Below are positions 1-64,000 of a stretch of 64,000 nt of DNA, piece after piece (the first letter of the stretch is position 1; each line of letters begins with the position of its first letter). Source of the stretch: Auanema rhodensis (Eukaryota; Animalia; Nematoda). Under the pieces are notes generated by a model. It saw only the letters and a list, made by a program, of their open reading frames with translations, did no database searches and was not told the origin of the DNA. The position numbers were made by a program, and so were the translations under genes. The stretch is taken from NCBI GenBank assembly GCA_964057225.1, contig OZ059899.1, forward strand, positions 9,672,001 to 9,736,000, in the 5' to 3' direction.

Positions 1-932
1 AATCCCATAGGCATTCGGCAATACTGATAGGTACCTGATGGAGTGGTAAAAGCAGTTAGGTATCTATCTGAGCGTTTCAACGGTATTTGGAAGAAACCAG
101 AAATGAGATCAAAATTCGAAAAGAACTGAGCTCCAGCCGCTAAGTCTATGATATCAGGAATGTGTGGAATGCTGTATGTTTGTTTCTTAGTAACACTATT
201 CAATGCTCTAAAGTCAGTAACGAACCGGAAAGAATTATCTTTCTTTTTCACAAGAACAACTGGACTAGTGAAAGTGGCCGTCGAATTTTCGATTATACCT
301 TGCGACAACATTTCTTTCACTTGCCGTTCTACTTCTTCTTGCTTACCCAATGGTACTCTTTAAGATCTACTTTTTGGAAAATCCATATCAGATCTTATAG
401 GAATGGCATGTTCAACTGGTCCGCAAAAGAGACCAATATTATGATCATGGTTGAAAAATGCCGTTTGGTTTTCCTTAATGATTGTGATCAGATTTTTCTT
501 CATTTTATGGGACAGAGTGCAAGAATTGAAGTTCAAATCATCCAAAAGATGCTGAGGAAAAGTTGGTAACTTATCTTCCCAATCAGCTTCAGGTGGAACA
601 TAATCGTTCATAATTTCTTTAGATGCTATAAGTCCTGAACCAATGTGGTCATTTTTATTAATTTTAATTGGCTTTGAAGAATTAAGAACCACTTCTCCTC
701 CGCTCAACGAAAACTGGGAGGTGTCTGAGACGTTTGGGGAAACTATCAGACAATCAGTTTTGACGAGCGTTACCTTTTTGTTATGCACGCGCGTGCTATT
801 TTGATTCATTACTTTATGATGTGAATGTCCAGTGTGGCAACAGAGCTCACTTTTTAGCTGAGTTGTTTGGAAGCTGGAGGCTGTTGGGATAATTTTATTT
901 ACGATTTTTGATTTTGATTCACATCCAAGGGT
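1..932 (-). pseudogene. pol: Ty3/gypsy pol fragment (PR-RT linker and RT N-terminus), in-frame stop at 360-362; continues off the left edge
   Basis: Reverse complement of 17592-18523; reads ...VEHAIPIRSDMDFPKSRS*RVPLGKQEEVERQVKEMLSQGIIENSTATFTSPVVLVKKKDNSFRFVTDFRALN, typical of a gypsy RT N-terminus. Confidence 0.9.
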
Positions 933-2394
933 TCATCAGGGTTCTACTCCTGTTAACTCTTTTCTTATTAGTTCAGAGATAATAAGAATATTTAAATTCC
1001 TACCCACCCAAGTCCACTCTACGTCTGCCAACGTTTCCTTTTTCCTATATTATTGACAGATTACTGAATTTAAAATCCTATATCAATCTTAAATTACCTT
1101 CTAAATCTTTTGGAATTAAATTAAAAATTATCTTAATTAAGATTTATTTTGAAATTCTTTCTACAAATCTTAATAACCTTTATGAAATTGAACTTAATAT
1201 ACGAGATGAGACATTTTTGTTTACTTTAAGCTTACTCACATTCAAATAGTTGGCCCACGCGTACCAGCTGTTCGACATGTGTAGTCAATAACAGCTGTTA
1301 AAATTCAAAAGTTTTCAAACAGGCTTAAGGCACCATCTGTGATTCCTTATTTGTCTCTAAGCTGACATTAGTGATTATAATATTCAAATATCACGACAGA
1401 CGGTCAATGGTTGTTTACCATAAGCGCTAACATCTGGTGTCGTGACACATGGCTGGAGGCGGAGCTTGAAGCTTCAACGATCCTCCTTCATCAGACGCCA
1501 TTGTCACAAACGTTTTTACTGGAGTCTAGTTGCTTCCAGTACGCGCTCTTATATTCATCTAACTGTATTCACCAGCCACCCTGTCGGACTCGGACATCAG
1601 CGAGGAAAACAAAGATCAGGAACAAGGATCACCAGAGGTACGCCAAGTTTTTGAATTTAATTCTAAAAACTTAAATACTCCATTCACCTACCTCTCTCCT
1701 TTTGAATTTTTGAGAGAAGAAGGTGATTCCTCTTCTTCTTCTCACTCTTCTTCTCTAACAATTAGAACGAGAAGTAAAAGCAGAAAGGCCATCACTGAGG
1801 AAACACCTCGGGCACCTACTACAGTACGAAATAGATCACCAAGTCGGTGAGCCGCTGCTATAACTAAAGCTTTTGAAAGAAAAATGACTCCTACCTCTCC
1901 ATCTCCTAATTCTAATGTTGCTCCACCCTCTAGAAATATGGCAACTATTTTGAATTGCCATCTCTGTCCCAGTATGACGGCTCTCGTAGCTTTCGTTCTT
2001 TTGTTGAATCTTTAAATAGATTTTTTAATGTTATGAATCTAAGCTTACCTGAGAGACTATTAATTTTGCCTCTTCTTCTTTTGGAATCAAATGAAACAGC
2101 TCTCTCCTTGTATAATAGTATTCCTAGTGGCATAAGAACTAATGGCCCATGGATTGTTTTGATGGATCAGCTCACTGAGCTTTTAGCGCCTAAAACAGAT
2201 AAAAATTTCACCATAGCGCTTATTCATCGAGTACAACAAGGAGATAAATCTGTTCTTGATTTTAGTATGGAATTAGAGAGAATGGCAAGCACCATAATGT
2301 CACCAATGGATCCCGAGCGGGAACCAATGTTGAAAACGGCATTTTTAAATGGTTTAAAAGAGGAGCTGGGTATTGCGGTTTTAACTAAAAACCC
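1..2394. repeat. Left arm of a large inverted repeat (partner 16129-18523)
   Basis: Mirror ORFs: 360-809(-)/17715-18164(+) and 1411-1674(+)/16850-17113(-); coordinate sums 18523-18524; only a few differences seen. Confidence 0.95.
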
Positions 2395-2623
2395 CGCCAC
2401 TTATGAACAAGCTAAGAAATTAGCTAGGTTTGGAGAAGGCGTTTGAAATAGCTTCATGAAAAGAAATGAAGACACTAGCACCTTGAAGGAGCTCATAAAT
2501 GCTTTACAGCATAAATTAAGCTTTAGTGAAGAAAGAGAAAGAAGTAGGAATAATAATAATAATAAAAATTATAAAAATTATAAAAAAAATAATAACTGGA
2601 CTCAGCACAATAATGGCTCTAAT
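1698..2623 (+). pseudogene. gag: Ty3/gypsy gag, disrupted (stop at ~1848, frameshift at ~1945-1970, stop at 2444), truncated at 2623 where it joins the tRNA array
   Basis: Capsid-like YDGSRSFRSFVESLNRFF...RVQQGDKSVLDFSMELERMA...FLNGLKEEL...NPATYEQA; the C-terminal WTQHNNGSN matches the gag frame at 63935-64000(-). Confidence 0.85.
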
Positions 2624-11577: not shown

Positions 11578-11957
11578 TGTCACATCTGCTAGCACATGGT
11601 AAACATGTGCGCGCTATTCAAATAGCGGGAGCCTGAACAAGCCCCGCCAACAACATGGGACACACATGGCACTCTTGCTTCTGGCCTAACCCAGATAGGT
11701 TGTCTTATAGTCATGTGAGTCTCATCTCTATATCATCTATATATATACTCTATTTAATACTTTATTATATCTCTTTATATTCTTTCTTAATGTAATTCTT
11801 ATATTGTATTTTCTTGTTATCTGATAATGAATCCTTTTCGCTTAAGTATTTGTCTTAATAAGGAAATCGGGGCGTTCGGGTCTGCCTACCTAAGGAACAA
11901 GGTAGAAGTACATATATCTTCCGACCATGAAAAGACGGGAAGAAACAATATGTAACG
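11578..11957 (+). mobile_element. Solo LTR (380 bp) of the gag-env-pol gypsy element, TSD GAAT (or GGAAT)
   Basis: TGTCACAT...ATGTAACG interrupts the array sequence GGAGAGGAAT|AACG with a duplication; near-identical to the PPT-adjacent LTR at 57525-57905. Confidence 0.95.
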
Positions 11958-15681: not shown

Positions 15682-16128
15682 TAAATTTTTTTCATTTCAC
15701 TTGTCATTTATAAAAATCGAATTTATCTTTTTCAACGATTATTTTTGCAATGTGTCATAAGAATTTCACAGTTAAACAAAACGTTTTTTTAGAAGTTTTT
15801 TTGTTGTTAACATATATATTCTCCTGGAATTTGAAAGCATTTGGGATGGAAATAAGAAAGAAAAGAACTAGTTTTTCCTACTTCAAAACAAACAATAAGA
15901 AATAAAATGAAAAAGATTGTTAGATATCCAATTTAAACTTATACATTTACTTTGATAAAGAGCCTATTAGATTGAAATTTTATGTCTTACAGTTCTCCAA
16001 CAGAACAGACTGGTCCTGATTTTTCTACGATTACAAAAAACTCTCGTTTGATATAAAAAAAGGAGAGGAATAACGTTTCCAGGATGTCAATGATATCGAA
16101 TCTAGTGATATTGTAGAAAAATTTTTTA

Positions 16129-16826
16129 GGGTTTTTAGTTAAAACCGCAATACCCAGCTCCTCTTTTAAACCATTTAAAAATGCCGTTTTCAACATTGGT
16201 TCCCGCTCGGGATCCATTGGTGACATTATGGTGCTTGCCATTCTCTCTAATTCCATACTAAAATCAAGAACAGATTTATCTCCTTGTTGTACTCGATGAA
16301 TAAGCGCTATGGTGAAATTTTTATCTGTTTTAGGCGCTAAACGCTCAGTGAGCTGATCCATCAAAACAATCCATGGGCCATTAGTTCTTATGCCACTAGG
16401 AATACTATTATACAAGGAGAGAGCTGTTTCATTTGATTCCAAAAGAAGAAGAGGCAAAATTAATAGTCTCTCAGGTAAGCTTAGATTCATAACATTAAAA
16501 AATCTATTTAAAGATTCAACAAAAGAACGAAAGCTACGAGAGCCGTCATACCTGGGACAGAGATGGCAATTCAAAATAGTTGCCATATTTCTAGAGGGTG
16601 GAGCAACATTAGAATTAGGAGATGGAGAGGTAGGAGTCATTTTTCTTTCAAAAGCTTTAGTTATAGCAGCGGCTCACCGACTTGGTGATCTATTTCGTAC
16701 TGTAGTAGGTGCCCGAGGTGTTTCCTCAGTGATGGCCTTTCTGCTTTTACTTCTCGTTCTAATTGTTAGAGAAGAAGAGTGAGAAGAAGAAGAGGAATCA
16801 CCTTCTTCTCTCAAAAATTCAAAAGG
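16129..16826 (-). pseudogene. gag: Ty3/gypsy gag fragment, truncated after VLTKNP where it joins the array
   Basis: ORF 15987-16640 carries the same capsid-like sequence; its tail (KKFFYNITRF...) is read-through into antisense array DNA. Confidence 0.85.
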
Positions 16827-18523
16827 AGAGAGGTAGGTGAATGGAGTATTTAAGTTTTTAGAATTAAATTCAAAAACTTGGCGTACCTCTGGTGATCCTT
16901 GTTCCTGATCTTTGTTTTCCTCGCTGATGTCCGAGTCCGACAGGGTGGCTGGTGAATACAGTTAGATGAATATAAGAGCGCGTACTGGAAGCAACTAGAC
17001 TCCAGTAAAAACGTTTGTGACAATGGCGTCTGATGAAGGAGGATCGTTGAAGCTTCAAGCTCCGCCTCCAGCCATGTGTCACGACACCAGATGTTAGCGC
17101 TTATGGTAAACAACCATTGACCGTCTGTCGTGATATTTGAATATTATAATCACTAATGTCAGCTTAGAGACAAATAAGGAATCACAGATGGTGCCTTAAG
17201 CCTGTTTGAAAACTTTTGAATTTTAACAGCTGTTATTGACTACACATGTCGAACAGCTGGTACGCGTGGGCCAACTATTTGAATGTGAGTAAGCTTAAAG
17301 TAAACAAAAATGTCTCATCTCGTATATTAAGTTCAATTTCATAAAGGTTATTAAGATTTGTAGAAAGAATTTCAAAATAAATCTTAATTAAGATAATTTT
17401 TAATTTAATTCCAAAAGATTTAGAAGGTAATTTAAGATTGATATAGGATTTTAAATTCAGTAATCTGTCAATAATATAGGAAAAAGGAAACGTTGGCAGA
17501 CGTAGAGTGGACTTGGGTGGGTAGGAATTTAAATATTCTTATTATCTCTGAACTAATAAGAAAAGAGTTAACAGGAGTAGAACCCTGATGAACCCTTGGA
17601 TGTGAATCAAAATCAAAAATCGTAAATAAAATTATCCCAACAGCCTCCAGCTTCCAAACAACTCAGCTAAAAAGTGAGCTCTGTTGCCACACTGGACATT
17701 CACATCATAAAGTAATGAATCAAAATAGCACGCGCGTGCATAACAAAAAGGTAACGCTCGTCAAAACTGATTGTCTGATAGTTTCCCCAAACGTCTCAGA
17801 CACCTCCCAGTTTTCGTTGAGCGGAGGAGAAGTGGTTCTTAATTCTTCAAAGCCAATTAAAATTAATAAAAATGACCACATTGGTTCAGGACTTATAGCA
17901 TCTAAAGAAATTATGAACGATTATGTTCCACCTGAAGCTGATTGGGAAGATAAGTTACCAACTTTTCCTCAGCATCTTTTGGATGATTTAAACTTCAATT
18001 CTTGCACTCTGTCCCATAAAATGAAGAAAAATCTGATCACAATCATTAAGGAAAACCAAACGGCATTTTTCAACCATGATCATAATATTGGTCTCTTTTG
18101 CGGACCAGTTGAACATGCCATTCCTATAAGATCTGATATGGATTTTCCAAAAAGTAGATCTTAAAGAGTACCATTGGGTAAGCAAGAAGAAGTAGAACGG
18201 CAAGTGAAAGAAATGTTGTCGCAAGGTATAATCGAAAATTCGACGGCCACTTTCACTAGTCCAGTTGTTCTTGTGAAAAAGAAAGATAATTCTTTCCGGT
18301 TCGTTACTGACTTTAGAGCATTGAATAGTGTTACTAAGAAACAAACATACAGCATTCCACACATTCCTGATATCATAGACTTAGCGGCTGGAGCTCAGTT
18401 CTTTTCGAATTTTGATCTCATTTCTGGTTTCTTCCAAATACCGTTGAAACGCTCAGATAGATACCTAACTGCTTTTACCACTCCATCAGGTACCTATCAG
18501 TATTGCCGAATGCCTATGGGATT
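16129..18523. repeat. Right arm of the large inverted repeat (partner 1-2394)
   Basis: Reverse complement of 1-2394 with one extra base at ~16551 and a few substitutions. Confidence 0.95.
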
Positions 18524-19996
18524 GTGTGGAGCGCCACACACTTTTCAATCCGCAGTACGATACTTGCAATCTCTTGTTAGATGCAAACTGTTTGTATATC
18601 TAGATGATTTGCTAATAATTTCGAACTCAGCTGAAAAACATTTAAGAGATATACAAGAAGTGCTGAACAAGGTCACTGAACTAGGGTTAAAAATTAAGTT
18701 ATCTAAATGTTGCTTTGCAGCCACTGAAGTAAAGTTTTTGGGTTTTATAATAGGTAGAAATGGTGTTAAACCAGATCCTGCTAAAATACAGGCTGTTTCC
18801 GAATTTCCAAATCCAAGCACAGTTACGGCTGTCAGATCCTTTCTAGGTATGACTAACTATTTTCGACGGTTTATTCAAAATTATGCCGGAATAGCTGAGC
18901 CATTGTATAAGTTAACACATAAGGATACTCCTTTTGAGTGGAAATCGGAACATGCAGACGCATTTAAAACTTTAAAAACATTACTGTATAAAAACATTAC
19001 TGGAAATATCCTCCTATTGAAGTTGAAGCACTCGGTTTAGTCTTTGCTCTTCAACAATTCCGTACCTATGTATTAGGAGTACCTACCACAGTTATCACAG
19101 ATCACCGACCATTAACCAGTTTAATGTCGCGTAAAGATCTCATAGGTAGATTAGCCAAGTATCAACTAATGATACAAGATTTCAACATAAAGATTGAATA
19201 TCGTCCTGGCAAATTAAACAGTGTCTGTGATGCTCTCTCCAGGTATATAGGAAACGAAGCAAATGACAGTCGTCCTACTTAACCAAAGGACAAAGTAAAA
19301 CCTGTTGATGCTTTTATTGCTCATATCACAACTATTTCTTCTATTGACCAACTAAATTGTGAAGAAATACGGAAAGTTCAAGCTGGAGTTCCCTGGATTC
19401 GCGAAGCACTTTCTCAAATTAATAATGATAACTGTCCGGCTAATATATCAGACCGGTATGAAGAACGAGAAGGCATATTACATGCAAAACAAGCGAAAAA
19501 TTATTTGAAACCATCTATTATTTTGCCTCGTAACGACAAAATAACTGATGTTGTTATCAAGTTTTTTCATGAAGATTCCAAAATTGGTGCACACCTAGGT
19601 ATAAATAAAACTACTGATGCGATTCGACGACGATTCTTTTGGACTAATATGGTTCCACAAATAACTGAATTTATTAATCGTTGTACAAAATGTGCAAGTA
19701 GGAAATCTAACCCACACCAATCGTATATTCAACCTATGGGAAGATTTGTTATACCCGAAAAGCCATTTGATCGTATTCATGTAGATATACTAGGTCCTTT
19801 ACCTCGCACTAATGATGGACATCGATACATCTTGAGTATTCAAGACGCTTTTAGTAAATGGGGAACAACTTGCCCATTAATAACACAAACGGCTACTGAA
19901 ATCACAAAAGCGTTTGTAATTAGATTTGTTTTCATATATGGACCACCAATGAGTATGATAACCGATAATGGTAGTAGCTTTTTGTCATCTGAATTT
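17592..19996 (+). pseudogene. pol: Ty3/gypsy pol (PR-RT linker, RT, partial RNase H, partial integrase), disrupted
   Basis: RT motifs MPMGLCGAP and YLDD; integrase H..H..CTKC and IHVDILGP...ITDNG; stops at 18162 and ~19280; 162-bp RNase H deletion at ~18988 relative to 60123-60284; truncated after SSEF. Confidence 0.93.
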
Positions 19997-20004
19997 AAAA
20001 AAAC

Positions 20005-20151
20005 AAATGTTGCTTTGCAGCCACTGAAGTGAAGTTTTTGGGTTTTGTAATAGGTAGAAATGGTGTTAAACCAGATCCTGCTAAAATACAGGCTGTTTCC
20101 GAATTTCCAAATCCAAGCACAGTTACGGCTGTCAGATCCTTTCTAGGTATG
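20005..20151 (+). pseudogene. Extra RT fragment (KCCFAATEVKFLGFVIG...SFLGM)
   Basis: Repeats 18705-18851, but carries the GFVIG allele seen in the copy near 60520. Confidence 0.85.
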
Positions 20152-20154
20152 GGT

Positions 20155-20202
20155 CGTTCGGGTCTGCCTACCTAAGGAACAAGGTAGAAGTACATATATC
20201 TT
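20155..20202 (+). mobile_element. Internal LTR fragment
   Basis: CGTTCGGGTCTGCCTACCTAAGGAACAAGGTAGAAGTACATATATCTT is identical to the LTR at 11873-11920. Confidence 0.9.
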
Positions 20203-20942: not shown

Positions 20943-21322
20943 TGTCACATCTGCTAGCACATGGTAAACATGTGCGCGCTATTCAAATAGCGGGAGCCTG
21001 AACAAGCCCCGCCAACAACATGGGACACACATGGCACTCTTGCTTCTGGCCTAACCCAGATAGGTTGTCTTATAGTCATGTGAGTCTCATCTCTATATCA
21101 TCTATATATATACTCTATTTAATACTTTATTATATCTCTTTATATTCTTTCTTAATGTAATTCTTATATTGTATTTTCTTGTTATCTGATAATGAATCCT
21201 TTTCGCTTAAGTATTTGTCTTAATAAGGAAATCGGGGCGTTCGGGTCTGCCTACCTAAGGAACAAGGTAGAAGTACATATATCTTCCGACCATGAAAAGA
21301 CGGGAAGAAACAATATGTAACG
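20943..21322 (+). mobile_element. Solo LTR (380 bp)
   Basis: Same sequence, site and TSD as 11578-11957. Confidence 0.95.
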
Positions 21323-56468: not shown

Positions 56469-57008
56469 TCATAATACTGGTGTATCTCTGGTAATGGTGA
56501 TGATCCTAGGTCGTGGAGAAGATCCATAGTCTTGTTGCATAAATCCGTTTTTCTTTCCATTTCTTTTTCTTGCCTCTGTGGATGGCAGTTCGCTGCAATG
56601 TTGCAGGCTCCATTCTTGATAGGCCGAATGGGTCTCGGCAATAATCCAGTTTGGTGTCTGCTGTTCTGGTGAATCGCAACTAGGTGAATAACCTAGTTGG
56701 TCCCTTAGTTCAGCAATGGCATCTCGGATGACTCCTGCTGTGTTGGTCCATGGTCCTATGCAGTGGTCAACCTCCGACAGTTGATCCTTGTCGTATTGGT
56801 AACATAGGATTTTGAGCGTTTCAGTACTGGTGTTCGCTCTTGTTAGTCCTTGAACTAACTCTTTCAGGATCTTCTCTTTCCTGGGGCGGTTGGCGATGGT
56901 ATTGGCGCCTAGCTGCTTCAATTCTCTTACTAATAGTTGAATTGAAAGCCATCTCTTCTTGGCCATCATGAGGGGAATTTCGACGGCTTCAGGAAGTTGG
57001 GTGGACAT
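56469..57008 (-). CDS. Hypothetical 179-aa protein, family not recognised
   Basis: ATG-initiated ORF (AACA-ATG context), higher GC than its AT-rich flanks, helical-looking N-terminal half. Confidence 0.4.
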   Translation of the reverse strand: MSTQLPEAVEIPLMMAKKRWLSIQLLVRELKQLGANTIANRPRKEKILKELVQGLTRANTSTETLKILCYQYDKDQLSEVDHCIGPWTNTAGVIRDAIAELRDQLGYSPSCDSPEQQTPNWIIAETHSAYQEWSLQHCSELPSTEARKRNGKKNGFMQQDYGSSPRPRIITITRDTPVL

Positions 57009-57370
57009 TGTTATCTTTGTTACTGTTTTCTGTCCTTTTATCCTTTTTAAAACTAGGTCGGTCTGTTCCTTCCTTTTTGTCGCCTCCTTTTTGACCAGTT
57101 AGGTGAAAAAGTGATGAAGATTGTTGATTAAAACTTTGCAGTGATTTTTGAAAGATTCCAAGTATGATGTATAATTTTATTTTGAAATTTTTGGTTATTA
57201 ATACAATATTTTTATGAGAGTGAAAAATAAAAATGTACAAACATTTGTGTAGAATTTTATGTATTACTTAAATGAGAAAAAAAAATTATATATAGGTTCA
57301 AGTTTAGATGAAAATTATGAAAATGGTATTATACTTTTTGTGATTTTTATATAGAAATTATGGATTTTTA

Positions 57371-57523
57371 CTATTGTTCTAGCTTCTTACTTGTAGTCCC
57401 AATAACTGTTGATGGTCTTTTCTTATGGATGACTGGTACTGTTGGTGCCACGAAGTTTGGGTCCGGGATCTGACTCTTCGAAACTCTCTTCTTCGGCTCT
57501 GTTACTGGTATGGTGCTGTGATA
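57371..57523 (-). other. 3' end of an ORF interrupted by the provirus insertion
   Basis: Open frame directly after the LTR end: YHSTIPVTEPKKRVSKSQIPDPNFVAPTVPVIHKKRPSTVIGTTSKKLEQ*. Confidence 0.35.
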
Positions 57524-57524
57524 C

Positions 57525-57905
57525 CGTTACATATTGTTTCTTCCCGTCTTTTCATGGTCGGAAGATATATGTACTTCTACCTTGTTCCTTAGGTAGGCAG
57601 ACCCGAACGCCCCGATTTCCTTATTAAGACAAATACTCAAAGAGAAAAGGATTCATTATCAGATAACAAGAAAATACAATATAAGAATTACATTAAGAAA
57701 GAATATAAAGAGATATAATAAAGTATTAAATAGAGTATATATATAGATGATATAGAGATGAGACTCACATGACTATAAGACAACCTATCTGGGTTAGGCC
57801 AGAAGCAAGAGTGCCATGTGTGTCCCATGTTGTGGGCGGGGCTTGTTCAGGCTCCCGCTATTTGAATAGCGCGCACATGTTTACCATGTGCTTGCAGATG
57901 TGACA
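57525..57905 (-). repeat. 3' LTR (381 bp), TGTCACAT...ATGTAACG
   Basis: Immediately follows the PPT; differs from the solo LTRs at only a handful of positions. Confidence 0.95.
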
Positions 57906-57917
57906 TCCCCCCACCTT
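57906..57917 (-). promoter_or_regulatory. Polypurine tract AAGGTGGGGGGA
   Basis: Directly abuts the TG start of the LTR. Confidence 0.9.
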
Positions 57918-57923
57918 AAAAAG

Positions 57924-57941
57924 TTGAACGTCCTCGTTCAA
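57924..57941 (-). promoter_or_regulatory. Pre-PPT hairpin TTGAACG-AGGA-CGTTCAA
   Basis: Perfect 7-bp stem; contains the GAGGAC motif often found just before gypsy PPTs. Confidence 0.65.
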
Positions 57942-58488
57942 AAACAAAATAAATTAATTCAATTTTTAAGATAGTTGGATGTTGGAAAAAAAATCATGGT
58001 GTAGTGGATAAAAAAATGTATACAATACGATTTGAAAGTTTAGCTATTGTCTCTTCAAGTTTGTTGAATTCGAAATGTAGTATCGAGTAGATTCTATTCC
58101 ATTCACTTGCAAACGAGAGCTTTGCTTCTAAACCATTCGACTGTGATATAGTCGTTCATTTTCTCGAGTTGTACAGGTACGGTGTTACCCTGAGAATAGG
58201 TCGAGCCCGTTCTGTACAAAAAAATGAAAACTCGTTTAACCCGTATGACTAATGTCCATAAGGTGAATACAAGTAATGATTATGCATAAAAAAATAGCAA
58301 GATTCACAAGAGAATGTTGAAAAATCTACTCAATGAGAGTTGGAGTAATAAAACAAAACCTTGTAAAACAATAGCAGACTTTTCAGAGAAAATCAATCAA
58401 CAACAAAGAAGTGTTACAATCAGAAATGGCACAAAATAAAATAAAATAAAAATTTCAACAATTTGATTTTGTTAAAAAAAAACTACCT

Positions 58489-60989
58489 TCAAGAAATTGT
58501 GATAACCGGAATAGATGTGGTCCGTTGGTAAGGTTTGACGAAGTCCTTGTGTACTCTTCTGCTTTTTCCTTTATCTGTTTGAACCACGACGAAAGATCTT
58601 TGAAGTGCTGTAACTAAATAAGGCCCTTCGAATGAAGGTGTTAGTTTGTTTCGAGTAGAATTCACTTTTATCATAACTAAGTCATCAACCTGAATTTCTT
58701 TATTTTGTGTTCTATTTCGTGTATTGTACCGTTGTTCATTCTTCTTTGTGCATGTTTCAATTCTATCTTTTACTATATTAGATGTGCTTTCATTTTGTAT
58801 TAGCGATCTATTGACAAAATCTTCTGTAGGATTGGCTGGTTCTTCAGTTTGAAGATTGTTTCCAGGCAATTGATGGTCAATAGGAAGTCTTGCATCCCGA
58901 CCAAATAATACAACATATGGACTAATAGATGTTGATGAGTTTGGTAACGTATTGATCGCAAACATAACTTTGGGTAGGTGTATATCCCAGTTAGTTTGTT
59001 GTTCATTCACGAATGAAGAGAGAGCTTCTTCCAAAGTTCTATGAAGTCTCTCAACTTGTCCATTAGCATTTTTATGATATGGTAGCGTAGTAGTGTGTTT
59101 AATTCCAAATTGTTTACACATAGCTTGAAATTCAGATGACAAAAAGCTACTACCATTATCGGTTATCATACTCATTGGTGGTCCATATATGAAAACAAAT
59201 CTAATTACAAACGCTTTTGTGATTTCAGTAGCCGTTTGTGTTATTAATGGGCAAGTTGTTCCCCATTTACTAAAAGCATCTTGAATACTCAAGATGTATC
59301 GATGTCCATCATTAGTGCGAGGTAAAGGACCTAGTATATCTACATGAATACGATCAAATGGCTTTTCGGGTATAACAAATCTTCCCATAGGTTGAATATA
59401 CGATTGGTGTGGGTTAGATTTCCTACTTGCACATTTTGTACAACGATTAATAAATTCAGTTATTTGTGGAACCATATTAGTCCAAAAGAATCGTCGTCGA
59501 ATCGCATCAGTAGTTTTATTTATACCTAGGTGTGCACCAATTTTGGAATCTTCATGGAAAAACTTGATAACAACATCAGTTATTTTGTCGTTTCGAGGCA
59601 AAATAATAGATGGTTTTAAATAATTTTTCGCTTGTTTTGCATGTAATATGCCTTCTCGTTCTTCATACCGGTCTGATATATTAGCCGGACAGTTATCATT
59701 ATTAATTTGAGAAAGTGCTTCGCGAATCCAGGGAACTCCAGCTTGAACTTTCCGTATTTCTTCACAATTTAGTTGGTCAATAGAAGAAATAGTTGTAATA
59801 TGAGCAATAAAAGCATCAACAGGTTTTACTTTGTCTTTTGGTTTAGTAGGACGACTGTCATTTGCTTCGTTTCCTATATACCTAGAGAGAGCATCACAGA
59901 CACTGTTTAATTTGCCAGGACGATATTCAATCTTTATGTTGAAATCTTGTATCATTAGTTGATACTTGGCTAATCTACCTATGAGATCTTTACGCGACAT
60001 TAAACTGGTTAATGGTCGGTGATCTGTGATAACTGTGGTAGGTACTCCTAATACATAGGTATGGAATTGTTGAAGAGCAAAGACTAAACCGAGTGCTTCA
60101 ACTTCAATAGGAGGATATTTCCGTTCCGCTGGAGTCAACTTTCTACTAGCAAACGCAATCGGGTGTAAAGGAGAATTTTTCTCTGCTGATTGCAATAAAA
60201 CTGCTCCCACAGCGATCATACTGCCATCACTTTCTATAACAAAAGGTTGGTCTGCTTTAGGAGGTTTCAGTACAGGGGCAGTACACAGTAATGTTTTTAA
60301 AGTTTTAAATGCGTCTGCATGTTCCGATTTCCACTCAAAAGGAGTATCCTTATGTGTTAACTTATACAATGGCTCAGCTATTCCGGCATAATTTTGAATA
60401 AACCGTCGAAAATAGTTAGTCATACCTAGAAAGGATCTGACAGCCGTAACTGTGCTTGGATTTGGAAATTCGGAAACAGCCTGTATTTTAGCAGGATCTG
60501 GTTTAACACCATTTCTACCTATTACAAAACCCAAAAACTTTACTTCAGTGGCTGCAAAGCAACATTTAGATAATTTAATTTTTAACCCTAGTTCAGTTAC
60601 CTTTTTCAGCACTTCTTGTATATCTTTTAAATGTTCTTCAGCTGAGTTCGAAATTATTAGCAAATCATCTAGATATACAAACAGTTTGCATCTAACAAGA
60701 GATTGCAAGTATCGTACTGCGGATTGAAAAGTGTGTGGCGCTCCACACAATCCCATAGGCATTCGGCAATACTGATAGGTACCTGATGGAGTGGTAAAAG
60801 CAGTTAGGTATCTATCTGAGTGTTTCAACGGTATTTGGAAGAAACCAGAAATGAGATCAAAATTCGAAAAGAACTGAGCTCCAGCCGCTAAGTCTATGAT
60901 ATCAGGAATGTGTGGGATGCTGTATGTTTGTTTCTTAGTAACACTATTCAATGCTCTAAAGTCAGTAACGAACCGGAAAGAATTATCTT
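58489..60989 (-). CDS. pol: Pol: RT (N-terminally truncated), RNase H and integrase; frame open, but the 5' end is lost
   Basis: YLDD; IESDGS...VGAVL and YPPIEVEALG...TDHRPL...CDALSR; H-x7-H...CTKC; VDILGP, ITDNG, NGQVERLHRTL; FEGPY. The ORF-track N-terminus MYNSD...FHFQ is env DNA read in another frame. Confidence 0.92.
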
Positions 60990-63900
60990 GAAAGTGAAAT
61001 ATAATGCTATCATTAGACATAATATCAGAGTTATACAACAGATGGTAATGAGTGTTCGTTCAATTGAACCTATACAAAAGTCAATGAACAGATCCCAATT
61101 GGAGAAAACAATTTTCCTGGCATCTCTTATAAGTTTACTTCCTTTGAAGATGAAAGAGGAAATTTGAGGCCAATCACGTGAACGAGAAATTACGCGGAGA
61201 AGATCATGGTGAGGTGAAGTAGATAAACTATAACCATAAGTTAATCCAATAGATAGGGCTAAGGATTTTTCAGTCGAATTTTCAAACAAATTCCGCCCTG
61301 TGAATCGAAGTTTACTCAATTCAGCATAATGATCATGTTTTTCTGAATGAATACTATCTACTTTATGTGTGTCACCTTTATAATCTCTCCATGTTCCATT
61401 TTCATACCAAATCTCTGTCTCTTTGTGTTCACAATTGATCTCATGTCCTTCAGTGCTCAAATCGTAGCTATCGATAGGAGCAAAGAATAATTGTTTATCG
61501 TGTGTTAAAACAGGGGTCTCTGCATAACATTTATCATTGTAAGAATGATTACGATAAATGAAATGTGGTTCTATTTCCTGACAAGTTGTTATTTTTAAAA
61601 CATTTCTTCCAACAAATCGGGCAACGATATCATCCCGCTGAAGCATAGCTCTTACTCCTATTGTAGGATGTATACGTAATATAGCTTGCCAGCTTTTTAC
61701 AGTTTCCATTTGAGATTTACAGATGGTATGAAACTGTTGATGAAATTCGTCAATTATGGAGAGACGCGCTTTCTCAAACCCATAATTCAACTTATTATCT
61801 ATTATCGTTTTAGTTTTATGCTCTGATTTGTGGAGAACATTGTCATATACTTCTGCTACATACAACTCTCGACCTCTCTCGTACGCATTAGGGGTAGGAG
61901 TTGTTAAACTACGAATTGTAGTTTTGGTGGCAGTTATTGGGGTTACAGTAGTATGCTGTACCATATTTTTATCAGTTGTGATTTGAGTTTTAACCCAACT
62001 TATGAATTCTAAAACTTCTGTTTTATTGAATTTAGGATTTTCCTGTGGGTATTCGATGGACTGTGGAGGAAATCCATAATATGCTGTACTATTCTTTGTA
62101 TAAAGGTTGTGATAGTCAGGCAGCTTGGATATAATTGCTAAATCTTGCTCTTGGTTGTTTCTAACAGTAGCATCAGCTTTTTGTTGTCGACTGACTTGCA
62201 TGTCACGAGATATTTGTTCTTTTCCCGATTGTTGTTGGATCATGAATAACATGCCTTGAGCAGTTGCAATAATTTCAGATTGATTCATATTTCCACTGCG
62301 TGCTAATATAGATGGATATAAGGCTCTGGCCAACTGTTCGATTGATGGAACTGTTTGTGTACCATCAAGAATTGTGGCTTGATATACTACTGCGTGAGCC
62401 ATTCCTCGAAAGAAGTCTTCTATGGATGTTGTAGATTTCATCAACGATCTTTTTAACCGAGGAACTTCTATACGACGAGCTACTTGAGTGATAAGATCAT
62501 CCAATTTCATGCTATTAATCACCTGTCTAGTAGCCAGTTTAATTTCCTCTATACCCATACATTGTAAAATCAAAAGATTGGGATCTTTGAAATTATTAGA
62601 CTTTGCCCAGTTAGTTATGTGATCTTTTGTCAATCCTAAACTAACAATTGTGTCAATGAACAGTGGATTATCTATCGCGAATTGGAGCAAACTCTCATAA
62701 GATGATGTAGCTGCATATCTCATATATTTTGCGTAAAACTTAGTGATAGATGCAGATCCAAAAATGAAAGTAGGTCTTAGAAATGGAAACGCATATGGTT
62801 GGGATTTCGCATTAACAAAAAGATAATCATCACTGAAAGAGCGATGTTTTTGAGGTAATGCATTACGTTTATTTCTGCGTCTATCAGCATTAAGCAAAGT
62901 ATTGGAAAGATCAAGCAAATTATAAACACGGGGATATGCTGTGAATCGGATAATTGCCTCAGAGGATGATTCAAAAACAGCGAATTCGAAACAAGATTGA
63001 ACGTGAGCGGATGTGGAATGATTTTGGAGAACAAAAGCGCTTTCAATAGAGTGAACTAGAAGAATATGATCACCCAACATGGCGGAGAAGGGGCCAAGTT
63101 TTTGATAGTGACAGACAACTGATGGGATAGGTGATTGCCAGATAACTGCACCTTCACCAGTTGCACAAAACCCTTCATTTCCTTTACAATTATCAGTATT
63201 TATAAATAAGTCTGATACAATGTGATCTTCTTTCAATCTAGTTATTATCCCTCGCTTCAATACAAATTGTTCAATTTCTACACATTCTTCAGTGGACCAA
63301 GAGCGAGTTGGATTATGCTCGTTTAATGGTGTTTCAAAAACTGAATGCTGTTGGGCATTCATGATTTTATCATTCCACATACGATTTCTATGTGCTCGAA
63401 CACAATCTTTCTTATCTACTGTTTCAATATGAGAGAATGTGGTGTTACGATCTCTCAAAAACATGAAATCTCTCACACAGCTTTTATACTTTTTCACATA
63501 GCATTTCCATGCTTCCCATGACTCTATCTCAGCCTTTGGTAGATATATTTCTACCTCAACACTGTGAGCCTTTTCAATTTCTGCCTTATGGCAGCCTGTG
63601 ACCACAGGAGGTGTTACTAATATACCCCCTTCAGATTGAGCGCAAATCTGATATTTTGCCGACCCAAAGGGAAGGCATGAGAGTGCCAATAAAGTCAGGC
63701 ACAACGTGACCGGTGGCATGAATGGGGTCGCTACGCTGTATACCCTTGAGTTACCATTCCCATTGGCTGATGGTCTTTGTCTTCTTGGGGAACTAGGCCT
63801 AGGGTTCCAAGACGAGCTATTGGCATTTCTGCCATTGGCAAATGGGCGGTTTCCCGGGTTAGGACGCCTATTCATATTCCCGTTCTGCGAGTTATTATTC

Positions 63901-64000
63901 TTATAACGTACGGCAGAAGGTCGCTCTCTCTCTCGCTCATAATCATTAGAGCCATTATTGTGCTGAGTCCAGTCATTATTTCTTTCATAATTTTCATAAT
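60948..64000 (-). CDS. env: Gag-Env polyprotein: Gag C-terminus fused in frame to a gB-like class III viral fusion glycoprotein (5'-partial)
   Basis: Frame is open upstream of the 63875 ATG to the window edge (YENYERNNDWTQHNNGSNDYERERERP...); signal peptide VTLCLTLLALSCLPFGSA; furin sites RRRNKR and RLKR; gB-like ICKSQ...W...IHPT...ARFVG..L.ITTC...CYAETPV; TM TLITICCITLILCLMIALYF. Confidence 0.85.
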   Translation of the reverse strand, partial: YENYERNNDWTQHNNGSNDYERERERPSAVRYKNNNSQNGNMNRRPNPGNRPFANGRNANSSSWNPRPSSPRRQRPSANGNGNSRVYSVATPFMPPVTLCLTLLALSCLPFGSAKYQICAQSEGGILVTPPVVTGCHKAEIEKAHSVEVEIYLPKAEIESWEAWKCYVKKYKSCVRDFMFLRDRNTTFSHIETVDKKDCVRAHRNRMWNDKIMNAQQHSVFETPLNEHNPTRSWSTEECVEIEQFVLKRGIITRLKEDHIVSDLFINTDNCKGNEGFCATGEGAVIWQSPIPSVVCHYQKLGPFSAMLGDHILLVHSIESAFVLQNHSTSAHVQSCFEFAVFESSSEAIIRFTAYPRVYNLLDLSNTLLNADRRRNKRNALPQKHRSFSDDYLFVNAKSQPYAFPFLRPTFIFGSASITKFYAKYMRYAATSSYESLLQFAIDNPLFIDTIVSLGLTKDHITNWAKSNNFKDPNLLILQCMGIEEIKLATRQVINSMKLDDLITQVARRIEVPRLKRSLMKSTTSIEDFFRGMAHAVVYQATILDGTQTVPSIEQLARALYPSILARSGNMNQSEIIATAQGMLFMIQQQSGKEQISRDMQVSRQQKADATVRNNQEQDLAIISKLPDYHNLYTKNSTAYYGFPPQSIEYPQENPKFNKTEVLEFISWVKTQITTDKNMVQHTTVTPITATKTTIRSLTTPTPNAYERGRELYVAEVYDNVLHKSEHKTKTIIDNKLNYGFEKARLSIIDEFHQQFHTICKSQMETVKSWQAILRIHPTIGVRAMLQRDDIVARFVGRNVLKITTCQEIEPHFIYRNHSYNDKCYAETPVLTHDKQLFFAPIDSYDLSTEGHEINCEHKETEIWYENGTWRDYKGDTHKVDSIHSEKHDHYAELSKLRFTGRNLFENSTEKSLALSIGLTYGYSLSTSPHHDLLRVISRSRDWPQISSFIFKGSKLIRDARKIVFSNWDLFIDFCIGSIERTLITICCITLILCLMIALYFTFKIILSGSLLTLEH

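Follow-up and report, generated by a model that had tools for sequence, protein, structure and literature searches.

The locus and its features

Positions 57525..64000 of the window, the whole 64,000-nt stretch of DNA analysed here, hold on the minus strand what is very probably a Ty3/gypsy LTR retroelement copy with an internal deletion; its relatives make a rhabditid nematode the likely host. The genes of the element stand in the order gag-env-pol. In the same strongly favoured reading, gag is in frame with an env predicted to encode a gB-like fusogen of class III, and intact kin would encode a single gag-env-protease-RT-RNase H-integrase polyprotein. The features of the element, all on the minus strand, are listed with the evidence for each.

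57525..57905: 3' LTR, 381 nt (98% identical to five solo LTRs)
57906..57917: polypurine tract (sequence)
57918..58488: 571-nt 3' untranslated stretch without env (ORF list)
58489..60989: 5'-truncated pol with RT (YLDD at 60675), RNase H and integrase (HHCC, DDE) (Pfam, motifs)
60990..60992: break, env joined to mid-RT (start of RT homology, contigs of public runs, relatives)
60993..61067: transmembrane anchor (hydropathy)
61074..61898: predicted gB-like domains III-V, comprising a long helix, domain IV and a membrane-proximal part (Pfam PF24664 and PF00606; model)
61899..62861: insert of ~320 aa between domains II and III, a helical part followed by a Thr/Pro-rich spacer (comparison of relatives, model)
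62865..62882: furin-type site, aa 373-378 (motif)
62919..63656: predicted gB-like domains I-II with ten conserved Cys (model pLDDT mostly 85-98, Cys conservation, VIA match to prefusion gB)
63657..63722: internal signal sequence, aa 93-114, predicted cleavage after A114 (hydropathy peak; cleavage site by eye)
63723..64000: gag end with an N/R/P/S-rich tail and no CCHC knuckle, the element extending past the window (ORF, match to a gag fragment, contigs of runs X1 and X7)

Further pieces of the family lie elsewhere in the window.

1..683, minus strand: second fragment, pre-RT linker and RT start, inverted relative to the leader at 683/688 (sequence comparison)
688..2623, plus strand: second fragment, 5' leader and broken gag, cut at 2623 by a tRNA array (sequence comparison)
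11578..11957, plus strand: solo LTR in a tRNA-Arg array with a 4-nt flanking duplication (repeats at 20943, 24861, 27849, 30427)
16129..20202, no strand assigned: third fragment, a near-identical (99.9%) inverted copy of 1-2394 with more broken pol and 52 nt of LTR (sequence comparison)

In the run contigs, not in the window, the LTR end runs into a tRNA-Gln-type primer-site 12-mer, recognized by eye. A non-autonomous derivative of the family is also present in the public runs.

The Gag-Env reading frame

A single frame of 1016 codons (60948-63998, minus strand) is open from the window end to a stop at 60948 and holds the gag end, the internal signal, the fusogen and the transmembrane (TM) helix. 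The original prediction described an in-frame fusion of Gag, signal and glycoprotein whose frame continues past 63875 to 64000; this is what is found, at 1016 codons and not 975. The stretch at the window end had been equated with the end of a capsid-bearing gag, and 63945-64000 indeed matches 2568-2623 over 56 nt (92.9% identity, E 2e-17); the matched stretch lies in the reading frame of that fragment's capsid ORF (1934-2446). With Pfam Retrotrans_gag the twin fragment at 15990-16673 scores 24.4 bits (E 3.4e-5), over the cut-off of 24.1. No CCHC knuckle occurs in aa 1-110 of the frame, as the original prediction had it for the N/R/P/S-rich tail. Gag end and env are both carried on single contigs from two studies, X1 (1802 nt) and X7 (820 nt), which cover the 63723..64000 stretch together with the gag end of the fragment at 2309/2477-2623.

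Hydropathy reveals only two hydrophobic segments in the ORF. One, aa 93-113 (63660-63722), coincides with the signal peptide predicted behind the gag tail (~63658-63710); the other, aa 978-1012 (60963-61067), with the predicted TM helix (~60995-61060). A comparable hydrophobic segment precedes the ectodomain in relatives.

A truncated gypsy-type Pol

Env sits between gag and pol, and none follows the integrase: the 571 nt between the integrase stop and the polypurine tract, close to the ~580 bp first estimated, contain no ORF of at least 60 aa. The predicted gag-env-pol order is upheld by the contigs bridging gag and env and by an integrase that runs directly to the polypurine tract and LTR. 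The assignment of Pol to Ty3/gypsy also holds, from the RT/RNase H tree described below and from the order of Pfam domains (RVT_1, RT_RNaseH, Integrase_H2C2, rve). Pfam yields no match to Pao peptidase, DUF1759 or DUF5641 in the element and env precedes RT, which argues against an env-bearing member of the Belpaoviridae.

That Pol follows env is correct for RT, RNase H and integrase; it does not hold at the join itself, an internal deletion at 60990-60992 that had been overlooked. RT homology begins mid-domain at 60989, Pfam finds no protease domain in the element at 57525..64000, and about 1.2-1.3 kb of family sequence (env tail, protease and RT start) is absent. Run contigs leave the window at 60989 (X1, X4, X7, X12) and at 60993 (X1, X4, X7), and the depth of X1 and X4 in the bin holding the break equals that of the two flanking contigs alone. 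The env-RT junction is private to the window copy and unseen in X1 or X4 contigs. Contigs show presence and not absence, and the break could be an assembly error; contig depth is not read as copy number, and the contig cover of X12 and X13 is patchy and has no bearing on expression.

RT DNA read in another frame supplies the final 14 codons of the env ORF and its stop. Because of the break, this stop and the env/pol overlap are by-products; the 112-nt overlap was considered as a frameshift site and rejected, as it arises from the break. From the window copy only Gag-Env, ending in a short tail from another frame, could be made, and Pol would be lacking, so that its mobility would depend on help from intact copies. 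PMC13524379 defines an intact errantivirus by a Pol without large truncation and a full-length RT; the window copy has neither.

A predicted class III fusogen

The monomer model and its fold matches predict a gB-like class III fusogen, in agreement with the original prediction. In Pfam, the C-terminal part of the ectodomain scores 33.9 bits with Monjiviricetes_fusion (E 1.1e-8), exceeding the cut-off of 27, and 24.1 bits with Glycoprotein_B (E 3e-5), short of the cut-off of 43. Fold comparison with gB and viral G, which had been suggested as a check, gives a class III match: the model aligns to prefusion EBV gB with Z 13.3 (364 residues, rmsd 5.7), herpes gB entries head the list of a wide structure search, and Nyavirus G comes second in BFVD. 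Foldseek whole-chain TM-scores to gB are low (0.16-0.18), the model has a pTM of 0.54, and a sequence search of the PDB with the ectodomain gave no matches. Across the alignment 14 of the 16 ectodomain Cys are conserved, and 44 of 93 relatives carry R-x-[KR]-R close to the domain II end. The hydrophobic hairpin tip at aa 178-181 is a likely fusion loop, judging from the model.

From anchor to anchor the post-furin insert measures 385 aa, against about 180 in the Clat_4 type. Folded alone it reaches a pLDDT of 42.8, and in the wide search with the whole model it drew only generic coiled-coil matches. Its match to PBS_linker (E 0.011) is far below the cut-off, an Atlas search with the insert returned nothing above 0.82, and direct BLAST against the Auanema protein P0158 was blank. 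A speculative and rather doubtful idea is that this loop is a slot for swappable modules in nematode fusogens, filled by unrelated inserts of 150-500 aa in different lineages and here by a helical domain on a Thr/Pro-rich stalk acting as an attachment or trigger module. If so, a gB acting alone would have in the insert a counterpart of the gD and gH/gL that serve herpes gB.

Relatives

The RT phylogeny proposed as a check places the element in a nematode clade. In a tree of 62 RT/RNase H sequences, built without the Pol sequences of PMC13524379, the window is sister to an Auanema element (support 0.975) within a clade (support 0.998) that otherwise comprises 11 Caenorhabditis, Diploscapter and Auanema proteins, all 11 with env upstream of RT. 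Pol is 43-59% identical to its nearest relatives and env 27-32%. Both an env match and an RT or integrase match are present in 44 of 271 stored proteins, with env first in 39; among the other five, the two that were scanned are BEL/Pao.

All 37 relatives with env and a downstream RT have a strong hydrophobic peak after env, followed in 32 by a protease motif 71-270 aa behind it. In seven of them, all from Caenorhabditis, another stretch of moderate hydrophobicity (1.9-2.3) lies between TM and protease and might make the topology less simple. Env, TM, protease and RT lie in one protein in many relatives, including Logan/JGI ORF calls (P0021, P0024, P0032, P0042); the protein searches favour long ORFs, one covering only 1457-4160 aa, and NCBI gene models of relatives may splice over frameshifts. 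Word-index protein searches with env found none among 2743 candidates (longer proteins) and none among 5522 (region 340-800), which is weak evidence since another search found 259 relatives.

Proposed expression and alternative readings

The continuous frame from gag to env is seen in the window copy, and that from env and TM to protease in relatives only; the relatives suggest one gag-env-protease-RT-integrase polyprotein. As a working scheme for sorting it across the ER membrane, Gag would be made in the cytosol, the internal signal would bring the ribosome to the ER, and signal peptidase would free the N-terminus of the ectodomain in the lumen. The single TM would stop transfer, and protease, RT and integrase would therefore emerge on the cytosolic side, so that the earlier suggestion of Pol as a cytosolic continuation after the TM is likely, with the topology seen in relatives. 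Release of Gag from the signal stub and of Pol from the env tail would then fall to the element's protease, and cleavage of the ectodomain behind domain II to furin; capsids would bud at membranes carrying Env. A 1:1:1 output of Gag, Env and Pol from one frame is unusual.

That stoichiometry would, we infer, be eased if Gag-Env ended after the TM and Pol were made separately by frameshifting, by readthrough or by splicing past env. Some relatives do end soon after the TM (e.g. P0002, labelled partial), and the leader has a GT directly after 1637, the site of the derivative's junction. However, many relatives read from env through TM and protease to RT as one protein, and no gag-to-pol join is found among the joints and loose ends listed for the run contigs; splicing past env, offered in the original prediction, has no support, and a separately made Pol is improbable. 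That the host retained a Pol-less Gag-Env unit as a fusogen or receptor-blocking gene is very unlikely: the frame is open over 1016 codons and the break spares the TM, but the useless pol remnant is equally open and the junction is missing from X1 and X4 contigs. Env differs from run contigs at only 4 of 1335 and 12 of 1696 letters, and because it differs so little its open frame is explained by youth. It is scarcely credible that the gene order arose just once, by rearrangement of this copy, in a family that is otherwise gag-pol-env or without env. Rearrangement affects all three family fragments of the window, and the env-RT junction occurs in this copy alone; yet gag-env is bridged by contigs in two studies, the integrase continues straight to the polypurine tract and LTR, and env precedes RT in every clade relative (11/11), which largely refutes this reading.

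Comparison with known systems

The deleted gag-env-pol copy in the window is a further member of a published nematode group of Ty3/gypsy elements with GAG-ENV-POL order and gB-type env, and the layout itself is not novel. Chary and Hayashi (eLife 2026, PMC13524379) report this order with an HSV/gB-type env in nematodes, bryozoans and flatworms, and credit the nematode case to Sacco et al. 2022 (J Gen Virol, doi 10.1099/jgv.0.001739), who by their account described a metavirus in which env and pol have changed places. The literature check thus finds the lineage already in print. An undescribed lineage with its own env capture is not upheld, as the same layout is reported there and both Pol and Env fall among elements of Caenorhabditis and Auanema; the view that env-bearing nematode elements are BEL/Pao and not gypsy is outdated. 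The window family shares gene order, gB-type env and gypsy Pol with the nematode 'errantiviruses', especially the Caenorhabditis tRNA-Gln group (Clat_errantivirus_4, Ctro_errantivirus_1). Its primer 12-mer is identical to the one listed there as the tRNA-Gln PBS of two Caenorhabditis elements, and its eight domain I-II Cys match, by eye and via C. japonica P0004, the Clat_4-type pattern, which may point to Cys-bridge class Nematoda_C1. The identities of its Pol and env mark it as a distinct family; its post-furin insert is longer than that of the Clat_4 type, and the window copy carries the deletion.

Herpesvirus gB and the Monjiviricetes glycoproteins (nyamivirus, chuvirus, rhabdovirus) have fold and domain order in common with the window env. 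In contrast, identity is ~10%, and the window env carries a large post-furin insert and is made inside a retroelement polyprotein. The non-canonical nematode ERVs of Sacco 2022 reportedly have a continuous gag-env-pro-pol ORF and an env resembling Nyamiviridae; Nyavirus G is likewise the second BFVD match of the window env. BEL/Pao elements of the Tas and Anakin type also have a gB-like env, and the BEL/Pao proteins P0031 and P0064 among the env matches have a related env. Those elements place env after integrase and have a BEL/Pao Pol, whereas the window element has env before RT and a gypsy Pol.

The window copy adds a further, young family to a striking layout already published for nematodes, bryozoans and flatworms (PMC13524379). 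In it a retroelement places a class III fusogen midway along its polyprotein, an arrangement also used by alphaviruses and flaviviruses.

Anatomy and Integrity of the Window Copy

The retroelement copy at 57525–64000 comprises the following parts, together with a neighbouring ORF:

60948–63998, minus strand: gag-env ORF of 1016 codons, its frame open as far as the window end
aa 93–113 and aa 978–1012 of that ORF: two hydrophobic segments
aa 373–378 of that ORF: furin-type site
pol, minus strand: RT, RNase H and integrase, each with catalytic motifs
3′ end: integrase stop, 571 nt, PPT, 381-nt LTR
56469–57098, minus strand: 209-aa ORF past the LTR, without a Pfam match

The first 56 nt of the gag-env ORF are 92.9% identical (E 2e-17) to 2568–2623, where a gag fragment ends. 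The capsid part of that fragment is in frame with this stretch, and the fragment's twin matches Retrotrans_gag slightly over the Pfam cut-off. No CCHC knuckle was found in aa 1–110, and three of the 11 N-glycosylation sequons precede the signal. The original prediction's account of a gag-signal-env ORF, including the open frame, gag-end match, hydrophobic segments, missing knuckle and spacing of integrase stop and PPT, was thus borne out. The flank adjoining 57525 continues into other sequence in contigs from public sequencing runs, so either the flank is repetitive or these runs have an empty site.

As assembled, the window copy is a broken, internally deleted element. Pfam found no protease in its pol and an RT match that begins within the domain, not at its start, while identity to the window's other two pol fragments starts at 60989. 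Contigs from four of 15 listed public runs were placed on 57400–64000, and contigs diverge from the window at 60989 (runs X1, X4, X7 and X12) and 60993 (X1, X4 and X7). Env-side contigs extend 185 nt past the break, and RT-side contigs from X1 and X7 carry 1073 nt ahead of it. Junction-bin depth (382.8 in X1, 11.3 in X4) equals the sum from the two flanking contigs alone, so no X1 or X4 contig carries the env-RT junction, though contigs lose rare forms and a junction missing from them is not proof of absence. The TM-to-RT distance is 426–446 aa in nine of 11 clade relatives (neighbours in the RT/RNase H tree) and close kin, and 397 aa in two, a spacing by which some 1.2–1.3 kb is absent from the window copy. 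RT DNA read in another frame supplies the final 14 codons and the stop of the env ORF, and the apparent env/pol overlap carries no meaning.

Gag-Env Join and a Putative Derivative Form

The gag-env join is a trait of the family. Gag end and env are spanned by an X1 contig of 1802 nt (62299–63994 plus 2477–2623) and an X7 contig of 820 nt (63449–63994 plus 2309–2623); the bridging contig records, from studies P1 and P3, were paired by length and depth. A 1373-nt X4 contig joins the LTR to 688–1606, which is thus the 5′ leader. The LTR end runs on into a 12-mer identical to the tRNA-Gln primer site of Clat_errantivirus_4 and Ctro_errantivirus_1, a type assigned to eight of 36 nematode elements (Chary and Hayashi, 2026; PMC13524379).

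Contigs from X1, X4, X7 and X12 also contain a form, seen in run contigs only, in which 1637 (plus strand) is joined to 58749 (minus strand): the leader passes through about 26 nucleotides from neither side into the integrase tail, without gag, env or RT. These contigs point to a non-autonomous derivative of the element, with depths for derivative versus gag of 781 versus 445 (X1), 7.2 versus 9.8 (X4) and 156 versus 152 (X7). Since GT directly follows 1637 in the window, a splice origin of the junction is possible.

A Predicted Class III Fusogen

The call of a gB-like fold was correct by Pfam, structure model and Foldseek/VIA comparison. The C-terminal 274 aa of env match Monjiviricetes_fusion over and Glycoprotein_B under the Pfam cut-off. 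A model built from a 71-sequence alignment has a mean pLDDT of 72, mostly 85–98 across domains I-II and III-IV, with low values over the final 90 residues and some stretches of the insert. Herpes gB was the top Foldseek match in the PDB (E 3e-10, with low TM-scores), and glycoproteins of Beihai rhabdo-like virus 3 and Nyavirus led in BFVD. VIA aligned prefusion EBV gB (Z 13.3, rmsd 5.7, 364 residues); a Foldseek-free structure search placed five herpes gB chains in the lead (Z 8.9–10.9), followed by a gB domain, rhabdovirus G and thogotovirus GP. Fourteen of 16 ectodomain cysteines are conserved, each in 42 to 63 of 50 to 64 occupied alignment rows. The hairpin tip at aa 178–181 is hydrophobic in the model, as would be expected for a fusion loop.

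Anchor to anchor, domains II and III are 385 aa apart in the window and 21 to 518 aa in 93 relatives. The 31 relatives with spans of at least 150 aa form several groups without mutual matches, many of them Ser/Thr/Pro-rich. The window insert directly matches only the Auanema protein P0001 (E 8e-17), and a two-sequence insert profile picks up P0163 of C. auriculariae (7.6e-5) and Auanema P0158 (2e-4). When five Caenorhabditis inserts were combined into a profile, P0001 scored 0.027, no better than a reversed control (0.029). The insert is thus common to part of the clade. A word search of the main text of PMC13524379 found no discussion of it, though that paper's figures may depict it.

Relatives and Placement of Pol

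With an E-value limit of 0.001, the env ORF search found 259 proteins, of which 150 were listed; an organism was named for 12 of 20 looked up, in all 12 a nematode (Auanema, five Caenorhabditis species, Acrobeloides, Halicephalobus and Aphelenchoides). Caenorhabditis, Diploscapter and Auanema ranked first in the Pol search, restricted to proteins of 1457–4160 aa, and its top proteins hold fusion-protein domains in the same chain. Env occurs with RT or IN matches in 44 of 271 stored proteins and comes first in 39 of the 44, in searches biased to long ORFs and with NCBI models that may mask frameshifts. Some env-first polyproteins have additional parts, namely P0032 (RRM in gag), P0060 (3316 aa long), and P0159 and P0162 (Pfam marks of GTPase-family and phlebovirus-G2-type), which possibly stem from fused gene models.

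A FastTree RT/RNase H tree of 62 sequences comprised the window, every env-first protein with at least 300 aligned residues (30 in all) and 31 of the 106 proteins that lack env. Its closest placement joins the window with Auanema P0158 as sisters within a clade of support 0.998, in which env lies upstream in all 11 other members. Across the whole tree, env-first proteins do not form a single clade, as also stated by PMC13524379.

Proposed Polyprotein Organization

In every one of the 37 relatives whose env and RT share a chain, a strong hydrophobic peak lies downstream of env; a protease motif follows it in 32. With a signal and one TM, Gag and Pol would be cytosolic and the ectodomain would face the ER lumen. 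The motif [IV][NY][ASYT][IVL] occurs in the 50 aa ahead of the signal in 9/24 relatives and in the 50 aa past the TM in 12/37, against 17/517 background windows; the window copy has one, at aa 86–89. The motif was picked and broadened after viewing the sequences, and the rows share ancestry, so it only hints at protease sites flanking Env on both of its cytosolic sides. A second, proline-rich hydrophobic stretch ahead of the protease in seven of the 37, all Caenorhabditis, counts against a simple one-signal-one-TM topology. In P0153, P0154, P0155, P0157, P0159, P0161 and P0163 a stretch of this kind is conserved, 50–60 aa after the env TM and immediately before the protease, and it somewhat resembles a second signal sequence. 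The reading frame of the nematode elements in the 2022 work of Sacco and colleagues is reportedly continuous.

Genomic Setting

The deleted copy sits at the edge of a tandem array of 55 tRNA-Arg(ACG) genes (2660–54858). Solo LTRs at 11578, 20943, 24861, 27849 and 30427 share the same flanks and a 4-nt duplication; given the identical flanks, the five represent a single insertion amplified along with the array. The LTR terminus is CG, not CA. At 683/688 and 17836/17841 each of the two fragments has an inversion junction at which pol and leader-gag abut back to back, and run contigs depart from the window on both sides of it. A few nucleotides of neither side occur there and at the env-RT break, and may be traces of end-joining repair.

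Comparison With Known Elements

The feature proposed by the original prediction is real, its fold call is correct and the layout is a known one: elements of Nematoda, Bryozoa and Platyhelminthes that have an ENV of the HSV/gB type in GAG-ENV-POL order are described in PMC13524379, which credits the nematode case to Sacco et al. (2022) and scores ENV-POL matches in the Auanema and Diploscapter pachys genomes. The words polyprotein and single ORF are absent from its accessible main text. P0004 of C. japonica, the fourth env match, resembles Clat_errantivirus_4 at about 80% identity, estimated by eye, across domains I-II, and has all eight cysteines of these domains in common with the window env. 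The layout is thus already known for nematodes, and the window element represents a new and young family within the gB-type GAG-ENV-POL gypsy elements of nematodes.
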